The notes beneath the pieces are model-generated. The model saw only the letters and a program-made list of their open reading frames with translations, was not told the origin of the DNA and did no database searches. This document shows positions 2,167 through 16,922 of a DNA stretch of 32,000 nucleotides, piece after piece (positions within the stretch are counted from its first letter, which is position 1; each line of letters opens with the position of its first letter). The DNA lies in assembly GCA_027031765.1 (NCBI GenBank), contig JALVPN010000040.1, positions 21,255-53,254 of the forward strand. The letters run 5' to 3'. The DNA comes from Promethearchaeota archaeon (GTDB taxonomy: Archaea; Asgardarchaeota; Thorarchaeia; Thorarchaeales; Thorarchaeaceae). The position numbers and the translations under genes are program-made.

Positions 2167-3315
2167 CTACTCGGAGCTACGGGTCGCGCCATATCGCGAT
2201 GTGTCGTAAAATGGCCACTCGGTCACCTCTGCCTTCCGGTGCCGCCCACGGATGTCCACCTCAACTATGTCCCCCACATCAACAGTATTCGGTGGGACGT
2301 ACCCGAGGGCAATGCCCTTCTTGAGGAGTGGCGACATGCCACCACTGGTCACCACGCCAATCTTCTCGCCACCAAGTATGATTGGATAGTCCGGACGCGG
2401 GACCCCCCGGTCTATCATGACCAGACCAATGCGTGTTTTCTTGACCCCTTCCTTCTTGTGCCGACGCACAACATCGTATCCAATATAGTGGGGCTCGACC
2501 TTGAACTTGACAGCATATGGGATACGGGCCTCGATTGGCGATGTGTCCTCATCAAGCTCGTGTCCATAGAGTACGAAACCGGCCTCAAGGCGTGTTGAGT
2601 CCCTTGCACCAAGGCCGCAGGGCTTGACACCAAACTCGGCGCCCTGCTCAAGTATGGCCTCCCAGAAACGGACAGCCTTCTTGATCCCGGTCGGGTCGTA
2701 TGGGGTATCAAGCAGGAGAATCTCGCCACCGTCCTCACCAGTGTACCCCGTCCGGCACAGGAAACAGTCCTCACCTGCCAAGGTGAGGGGGTTGCATGTG
2801 AAACGGGGCAGTGCGCTGACATCCTCGCCAGCCAGTTTGGAGAGCAATGCGAGCGCCTTCGGGCCTTGGACTGCAATCATGACAATCTCGCGCGACTTGT
2901 CTTCGACCTTGACGTCGAACCGCGCGGCATGTTCCTGTATGTGCGCCCAGATCTTGGGCCCATTTGCTGCATTTGTGACCCAGATGAACTCGTCGTCGCC
3001 AACGCGGTACAACATCAGGTCGTCCTTTGTACCACCCCTCTCATTGAGACACGTAGAGTAGTGCCCACCATTTGGCTTCAACTTACGGACATTGTTTGTG
3101 GTGAGGGTCTGTAGAAAGTCCACCGCATCGTGGCCCGAAATCCTGAAGCGGGACATATGAGTGGTATCGAAGACCCCGACAGCCTCCCGGACAGCCATGT
3201 GTTCCTCGCGGATGTCCGAATACCTGACGGGCATCTCCCACCCGGCGAACGGGACTACATCTCCGTGGCTCTTGTGCCACTCAAAGAGGTGGGTGCGGTT
3301 CAGGGTGTCAACCAT
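2167..3315 (-). CDS. gcvT: Glycine cleavage system T protein (aminomethyltransferase)
   Basis: FAGWEMPVRY, VFDTTHM, RTGYTGEDGGE, GLGARDSTRLEAG. Start moved to ATG 3315 because the longer ORF overlaps the divergent folP. Confidence 0.96.
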   Translation of the reverse strand: MVDTLNRTHLFEWHKSHGDVVPFAGWEMPVRYSDIREEHMAVREAVGVFDTTHMSRFRISGHDAVDFLQTLTTNNVRKLKPNGGHYSTCLNERGGTKDDLMLYRVGDDEFIWVTNAANGPKIWAHIQEHAARFDVKVEDKSREIVMIAVQGPKALALLSKLAGEDVSALPRFTCNPLTLAGEDCFLCRTGYTGEDGGEILLLDTPYDPTGIKKAVRFWEAILEQGAEFGVKPCGLGARDSTRLEAGFVLYGHELDEDTSPIEARIPYAVKFKVEPHYIGYDVVRRHKKEGVKKTRIGLVMIDRGVPRPDYPIILGGEKIGVVTSGGMSPLLKKGIALGYVPPNTVDVGDIVEVDIRGRHRKAEVTEWPFYDTSRYGATRSSE

Positions 3316-16349: not shown

Positions 16350-16578
16350 CAGGAAAAGGAGTGGGTGGCGCCGGGAGAGGGAACCCCAGACCCCATGGAC
16401 ATCATAGGGTCTTTTGAACCCTCGCGTGCTAAGCACACCAACTTAGCAGGCTGGCTCCCTACCAGGCTAGGACATCCCGGCATCAACGGCTGCCTGCGGC
16501 CATCTTCACTTAAACATTGTTGTCCATCTGACCGTGGTACTGAGCAACAGCAGCCTAGGGTCACATACGTGGATGGAG

Positions 16579-16893
16579 TGCAACGGCCCCGCCGCTTCGA
16601 ACGTCCCTTCCCACTGTGCGGTCCACCGCCTTTCTCAAGGCAGCGCCCTCCGGGGCTCCACCGCCCCGCCTTAGGGCTGCTCCCGCCAGGGCCTGGCCCG
16701 GTTCGGCGGCCTAGTCCACTCACACCAGTCCTTCGACTGGTGCTGTGACTGCGGCAGACTCCGGAGACTGCCTCTCACAGTCCAGCGGCAGGGCACATGT
16801 GAGTCGGGGTTCGTCCTCAGCTTTGGTTACTGGTCCCGGCTATTGCCATACCGGTTACAGGTCGCGGCAAACGACCCGACCCTACCCGTTGCA
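16579..16893 (-). ncRNA. ffs: Signal recognition particle RNA (archaeal 7S type, about 315 nt)
   Basis: Ends pair (UGCAACGG/CCGUUGCA). Alu domain: GGUCG-UUUGCCG-CGACC, UGUAA, CCGG-UAUGGCAAUAG-CCGG with loop-loop UUGCC/GGCAA. Long helix 5. Helix 6 GCACCAGUC-GAAG-GACUGGUGU. Helix 8 CCGCC GAACC GGGC CAGG CCC [UGGC] GGG AGCA GCCC UAA GGCGG. Confidence 0.95.
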
Positions 16894-16912: not shown

Positions 16913-16922
16913 TGAATTAAAG
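16913..16922 (-). promoter_or_regulatory. TATA box of the SRP RNA gene
   Basis: TTTAATT at 16921-16915, 22-28 nt upstream of the predicted 5' end. Confidence 0.65.

Follow-up and report, generated by a model that had tools for sequence, protein, structure and literature searches.

In the 81 archaeal SRP RNAs surveyed in 2010, helix 8 ends only in GRRA tetraloops, namely, GGAA, GGGA, or GAGA (PMC2905702). The adenosine at the fourth position of this loop pairs with an adenosine of helix 6, and the resulting clamp is described as highly conserved and as likely to exist in every SRP RNA of archaea and eukaryotes (PMC2905702, PMC4615810). In bacteria, where the tetraloop serves the early docking of FtsY (PMC5454536), URRC is a widespread alternative to GNRA at the SRP RNA's tip (PMC4091067); the initial annotation of the locus described here had likewise listed URRC loops from some bacterial SRP RNAs. 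A structural precedent for such loops comes from the UNAC/UMAC tetraloops of rRNA and phage boxB RNA, which mimic the GNRA backbone through a trans sugar/Hoogsteen pair between U1 and C4 (PMC5311481, citing Zhao 2012; PMC12550061).

Our analysis of a 32-kb stretch of DNA (the window) centers on a gene that belongs to the archaeal SRP RNA family by every tested feature save the GRRA loop of the literature and that supplies a Thorarchaeota (Asgard) archaeon with its functional SRP RNA from a single gene copy. Using cmscan and Rfam 15, the gene was matched to Archaea_SRP (RF01857) along the entire model (positions 1 to 317 of 317) with 111.7 bits, compared to a gathering score of 96.5, and an E value of 7.9e-25. 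No other Rfam family was matched in the window, and the source genome (2.95 Mb, 95% complete) holds no second copy. With the RF01857 RNAs of Methanocaldococcus jannaschii, Archaeoglobus fulgidus, and Sulfolobus solfataricus, the window RNA shares helices 1 to 6 and 8, the UGUAA turn that separates helix 3 from helix 4, the GNAR loop of helix 6, the SRP54-binding loops, and the accompanying SRP19, SRP54, and FtsY genes. In the alignment, the 5' and 3' ends, GCAACGG and CCGUUGC, pair to close helix 1; the small (Alu) domain, comprising helices 3 and 4, contains the UGUNR turn, with CCUGUAACC aligned to the consensus UGUaA; and both the asymmetric loop (GAAC/UAA) and the symmetric loop (CAGG/AGCA) of helix 8 are canonical. 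The element TTTAATT, whose center is some 26 nt upstream from the 5' end of the RNA, lies at a distance that suits archaeal promoters and is, as judged from its sequence, a putative promoter of the SRP RNA gene. The coordinates of these features are compiled in the table.

Table. Features of the SRP RNA gene in the window (positions count from the first letter of the window)
Feature	Positions	Strand	Basis
SRP (7S) RNA gene, archaeal type, full length, 313 nt	16580-16892	-	Rfam RF01857
Helix 8, SRP54 M-domain binding	~16666-16709	-	cmscan alignment to family consensus, sequence reading
Helix 8 apical tetraloop UGGC, URRC class	16685-16688	-	sequence reading, cmscan alignment
Helix 6 hairpin, SRP19 binding site (approximate limits)	16713-16753	-	cmscan alignment; 9-bp stem around loop
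Helix 6 GNAR tetraloop GAAG, clamp adenosine at position 3	16731-16734	-	sequence reading, cmscan
TTTAATT, TATA-box-like (putative promoter)	16915-16921	-	direct reading

The protein partners of this RNA are encoded in the same genome, as SRP19 (66.1 bits), the SRP54 M domain (83 bits), and FtsY (326 bits) were all recovered, and an alignment with archaeal SRP19 proteins of solved structure shows the RNA-binding motifs of this SRP19 to be intact. Within the SRP54 gene (G000:C144:40248-41700, L275), a run of N is followed by a change of frame, leaving a 349-amino-acid NG part and a 140-amino-acid M part; this break looks like a scaffold gap and not like a biological split.

The window RNA departs from the surveyed archaeal RNAs in the apical loop of helix 8. 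On the minus strand, U, G, G, and C occupy positions 16688, 16687, 16686, and 16685, respectively, and the window RNA reads CAGG-CCC-UGGC-GGG-AGCA, compared to a consensus of CAGG-CCC-GGAA-GGG-AGCA. The loop is closed by a Watson-Crick C-G pair (C-UGGC-G) and matches the definition of URRC, with U at position 1, purines at positions 2 and 3, and C at position 4. Thus, instead of the GRRA apical loop expected from the survey (PMC2905702), the window RNA has UGGC, and the fourth-position adenosine assigned to the clamp is a cytosine. Since the GRRA loop is a feature taken from the literature and no criterion of the Rfam model, the membership in RF01857 stands. The minus-strand reading and the alignment to the consensus bear out the initial annotation in its description of a complete archaeal-type SRP RNA, an adenine-free UGGC loop, and canonical surroundings, both in the neighboring SRP54-binding loops and in the GAAG (GNAR) loop of helix 6. 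Bacterial 4.5S and 6S SRP RNAs with URRC match the window RNA in the class and the position of the loop; unlike the window RNA, however, they have neither helix 6 nor SRP19, and their URRC loop therefore has no clamp partner.

The initial annotation had listed no URRC loop from an archaeal SRP RNA, which agrees with the GRRA-only survey (PMC2905702) and with the searchable literature, in which we found no paper describing one (its coverage is incomplete, with most subscription papers lying outside). Relative to this searchable literature, both the occurrence of URRC in archaea at all and its presence throughout a family that has helix 6 and SRP19 are new.

An unusual tetraloop might be the product of an assembly or sequencing error, or the locus might be a decaying extra copy, with GGAA or GGGA as the true loop. 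We found no support for either, and the evidence makes this reading so improbable that it can be set aside. UGGC is present in 27 of the 32 species genomes of the same GTDB family, Thorarchaeaceae, in which an RF01857 search recovered an SRP RNA, while GGGA is present in the other 5, which come from four genera; all of these genomes are MAGs. Furthermore, a Logan contig (1,702 nt, depth of 13.8) from the best-matching public run, a hydrothermal-vent metagenome that may be the source sample, covers positions 16560 to 16849 with 0 differences, and a variant letter at positions 16685 to 16688 was reported in none of the four public runs compared. None of the public runs listed as containing the locus is an RNA data set. 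The assembly error that had been allowed for at the outset is ruled out by the family-wide occurrence of UGGC together with the identical independent assembly. A decaying copy is contradicted by the full length of the RNA, by its score above the Rfam threshold, and by its being the only copy in a genome that is nearly complete.

To place the loop among archaea, GTDB was scanned, with one genome per species, for the helix 8 word containing UGGC. The Rfam-confirmed SRP RNAs carrying this word come mostly from Thorarchaeota but also from Altiarchaeota, Aenigmatarchaeota, Nanohaloarchaea, and one MAG labeled Thermoproteales. Bacterial matches to the word (in Phycisphaerales, Clostridia, Steroidobacteraceae, Saccharothrix, Avoscillospira, and Limnocylindrales) were rejected as chance matches, since none of them reaches the Rfam threshold as an SRP RNA. 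Helix 8 loops were furthermore read by script, within the Rfam coordinates, in 239 evenly sampled archaeal SRP RNAs, yielding 79 GGAA, 59 GGGA, 1 GAAA, 43 UGGC, and 33 UGAC loops. Several loops were read only by eye, as GGAA in L192, L195, and L211, as UGAU in L323 and L324, and as UGAC, with a C.C beside the loop, in L379 and L383. Aside from the two UGAU loops and one doubtful TAAT call, all readable loops are either G-R-R-A or U-R-R-C, and the mixed types G..C and U..A were not seen among the 239 RNAs.

The sampled groups differ markedly in their use of the two loop classes. All 30 RNAs from the phylum Nanohaloarchaeota have URRC (26 UGAC and 4 UGGC), as do 12 of the 30 from Altiarchaeota (the others being 2 UGAU and 16 GRRA) and 6 of the 30 from Aenigmatarchaeota (next to 23 GRRA and 1 with an insert). 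Of the 30 RNAs from Thermoproteota-like organisms related to the 'Thermoproteales' MAG, 2 have UGGC, 27 have GRRA, and 1 has an insert. Among the 87 RNAs from Asgard families other than Thorarchaeaceae, UGGC was found once, in L190, whereas the six sampled relatives of L190 have GGGA; three further RNAs are GGAA by eye, a single odd TAAT call is probably a mis-pick of the regular expression, and the rest are GGAA or GGGA, with 14 RNAs carrying an insert. Since other sampled archaeal groups carry URRC, the loop is not unique to Thorarchaeaceae, and its distribution demonstrates that it arose repeatedly in archaea. Apart from Thorarchaeaceae, the only RNAs seen to combine URRC with helix 6 are L190 and those of two Thermoproteota-like genomes (G189 and G299). 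G189, the one of these two that was tested for SRP19, has a UGGC loop, a GGAG loop on helix 6, and an SRP19 match of 84 bits. In the first sample, the RF01857 scores of Thorarchaeaceae RNAs were 72 to 120 bits (50.5 for one contig-end fragment), compared to 125 to 193 bits in most other Asgard families.

The three DPANN phyla, Nanohaloarchaeota, Altiarchaeota, and Aenigmatarchaeota, provide a different setting for the loop. Their SRP RNAs (90 loci, L295 to L384) are 262 to 286 nt long, with two outliers, one of 316 nt with an insert and an unusual one of 286 nt, and all 40 model positions of helix 6 are deleted in the three alignments examined (L298, L340, and L367). SRP19 was undetected with PF01922 in all 19 DPANN genomes tested, whatever their loop, by a profile that also misses the SRP19 of the Sulfolobus control. 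With helix 6 missing and SRP19 undetected, the DPANN RNAs represent a bacteria-like context. They resemble the window RNA in being of the archaeal type, above the RF01857 threshold, and in carrying a URRC loop (UGAC or UGGC), but they differ from it in that the window RNA and its genome have both helix 6 and SRP19. The proposition, raised at the outset, that URRC loops might already be common among archaea thus holds for these phyla, at the frequencies given above, but only in RNAs without helix 6 and in genomes in which SRP19 is undetected. Across the sampled archaea, URRC loops are rare in the company of helix 6 and SRP19 and frequent where these are absent or undetected, and this rarity hints at a cost of exchanging the loop in the context of the clamp.

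Within Thorarchaeaceae, the coexistence of both loop types allowed us to search for changes that accompany the loop. In the family RNA alignment, loop positions 1 and 4 alone separate 27/27 UGGC RNAs from 5/5 GGGA RNAs, and no column in the remainder of the SRP RNA, helix 6 included, does so. Likewise, the protein alignments contained no column that separates the types, whether for SRP19 (17 UGGC-type versus 5 GGGA-type genomes, leaving out rows G157 to G184, whose loop state is only assumed from the genus), for SRP54 (18 versus 5 genomes), or for FtsY (10 versus 4 genomes, leaving out four ORFs outside the motif filter); the RNA and protein comparisons all draw on roughly two to five independent loop transitions in this family. 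The covarying protein residues for which the initial annotation had proposed to look were therefore not found in any of the three partners. The RNA-binding motifs of SRP19 are conserved in UGGC-type and GGGA-type genomes alike, and nearly every family member of either type has GAAG or GUAG as its helix 6 loop, with GUAA and CGAA each seen in one UGGC-type row. FtsY retains, in both types, the lysine 13 residues past the DTAGR arginine, which we take to be the equivalent of E. coli K399, the residue contacting the loop in bacteria. At the level of sequence, the trait is fixed in most of the family, and neither the remaining RNA nor its protein partners show a change that accompanies the loop.

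An SRP54 tree recovered the family (100/99) with an unresolved internal backbone, over which the GGGA genera are scattered. A single origin of UGGC within the family was tried on this tree; the best tree needs five changes, but no well-supported branch stands against one origin, and the well-supported branches are compatible with it.

We consider it reasonably probable that UGGC is a shape-preserving, near-neutral swap at two positions and that the particle works as it does in other archaea. In this scenario, an ancestral GGGA would have become UGGC through a joint change of loop positions 1 and 4, wherein the closing pair of a GNRA loop, the trans sugar/Hoogsteen pair G1.A4, would give way to a U1.C4 pair of matching geometry. 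Such a replacement predicts that positions 1 and 4 change together, and the middle purines are indeed retained across the swap, with GGGA corresponding to UGGC and GGAA to UGAC. By analogy with the UNAC precedents, and given the strict 1-4 coupling in 239 sequences, UGGC may well adopt a GNRA-like fold with a U1.C4 pair. SRP19 would mainly read the backbone and the widened groove, in which case neither SRP19 nor the remaining particle would encounter a different shape. Opposite the helix 6 adenosine there would be a cytosine in place of an adenosine, giving an A.C contact or none, and helices 6 and 8 would owe their packing to SRP19 and to contacts of the internal loops. Several points argue against this scenario or limit it. 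First, although UGGC shares U1 and C4 with the UNAC/UMAC tetraloops, it is not strictly UNAC, as position 3 is G in the window RNA and A in those loops. Second, because C4 cannot form the same A-A pair, some change in the packing of helices 6 and 8 is likely. Third, the scarcity of URRC alongside helix 6 and SRP19 hints, as noted above, at a cost of the swap.

If the change in packing were consequential, UGGC would alter the particle, either through loss of the A-A clamp, with closure of the S domain then depending on SRP19, as in mammals, instead of on the RNA itself, or through a change in the first docking of FtsY at the tetraloop. The loop offers no adenosine to the adenosine of helix 6, even though high conservation is ascribed to the clamp adenosines (PMC2905702, PMC4615810), and the scarcity of URRC in archaea with helix 6 and SRP19, together with its frequency in those without them, would fit a functional effect, as would the retention of SRP19 in 54 of 60 Thorarchaeaceae genomes. 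We nevertheless regard an altered particle as rather unlikely, since no compensating change was found in helix 6, the remaining SRP RNA, SRP19, SRP54, or FtsY, the GNAR adenosine of helix 6 is kept in both loop types (except in the UGGC-type row with CGAA), and the FtsY lysine is kept as well. Moreover, the interspersion of GGGA and UGGC genera on the unresolved SRP54 tree suggests easy interconversion. The initial suggestion that SRP19 clamping or receptor activation may differ in this lineage is therefore not backed by any column that tracks the loop in the SRP RNA, SRP19, SRP54, or FtsY. More specifically, it seems quite improbable to us that Thorarchaeaceae, which have helix 6 and SRP19, truly gave up the adenosine clamp between helices 6 and 8, leaving S-domain closure and SRP54 loading dependent on SRP19. 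Were this the case, these archaea would share the SRP19 dependence of mammals, as opposed to the RNA-intrinsic closure of other archaea, and, as relatives of the eukaryotic ancestor, would have taken a step towards assembling their SRP in a eukaryote-like manner.

Being a four-letter word capable of Watson-Crick pairing and kept family-wide, UGGC could also have gained a base-paired contact, through kissing or tertiary pairing with a GCCA in the SRP RNA, in rRNA, or in another RNA. No other column of the SRP RNA covaries with the loop type, however, and the presence of UGAC at the same site in other lineages is not compatible with any one complementary partner. Positions 1 and 4 that are coupled around free middle purines are instead what a pair internal to the loop predicts, and we judge a new pairing partner to be highly improbable.

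Under the favored scenario of a shape-preserving swap, the window RNA and its relatives look like a modest exception to the GRRA and clamp rule, without support for a new mechanism, and the practical weight of the finding is correspondingly modest. Since a whole family with helix 6 and SRP19 has a cytosine at the clamp position, the identity of the adenosine at this position is nonessential. The GGGA/UGGC pairs within one family constitute a natural test of what the clamp contributes, and the survey provides a clean example of covariation inside a tetraloop, from G1.A4 to U1.C4. In addition, gene finders and classifiers that rely on the loop and expect GNRA will mis-score such RNAs.

Several further observations were made in the course of this work. 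In the 3' strand of the symmetric loop in helix 8, AACA replaces the near-universal AGCA in most Thorarchaeaceae (e.g., L015 to L019 and L021 to L036), and the conserved G.G pair would consequently become G.A. The window RNA itself has AGCA, and window position 16680 shows a C>T variant in related contigs. Among the family RNAs, the AACA/AGCA state does not track the UGGC/GGGA loop type.

The inserts mentioned above occur in 16 sampled SRP RNA genes, are 18 to 39 nt long, and lie at one fixed site of helix 8, between CCCGGGAG and GGAGCA. Their Asgard carriers belong to families f7 (L009, L010, L145, and L147), f15 (L139, L140, and L144), f19 (L151, L153, L154, L196, and L197), and f21 (L146 and L148), and the carriers beyond Asgard are L349 (Aenigmatarchaeota) and L389 (Thermoproteota-like). 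Because deletion of the insert restores a canonical AGG-CCC-GGGA-GGG-AGCA in 16/16 cases, the insert is probably, as far as the sequences indicate, an intron of the bulge-helix-bulge type.

Just downstream of the SRP RNA gene, at approximately positions 16380 to 16500 of the window (minus strand), a tRNA-like stretch has acceptor-like ends, GCCGGGA...UCCCGGC-G-CCA, and includes extra internal sequence. Neither ARAGORN nor Rfam called a tRNA at this location, and the stretch may be a tRNA gene with one or more noncanonical introns, or nothing.

Second SRP RNA matches were encountered in a few of the other genomes. One Asgard f12 genome has two full matches on separate contigs (G137:C149:1100-1439 and G137:C268:1727-2066), and a short, weak second match lies about 1 to 1.5 kb from the main gene in one Thorarchaeaceae genome (G113:C3:174398-174504) and in one genome of the phylum Altiarchaeota (G208:C25:32930-33023). 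In Candidatus Nanosalinarum sp. J07AB56 (L076), two SRP RNA copies, at positions 236 to 500 and 2960 to 3224, lie 2.7 kb apart; both contain the UGGC word, and Bacteria_large_SRP outscores Archaea_SRP.
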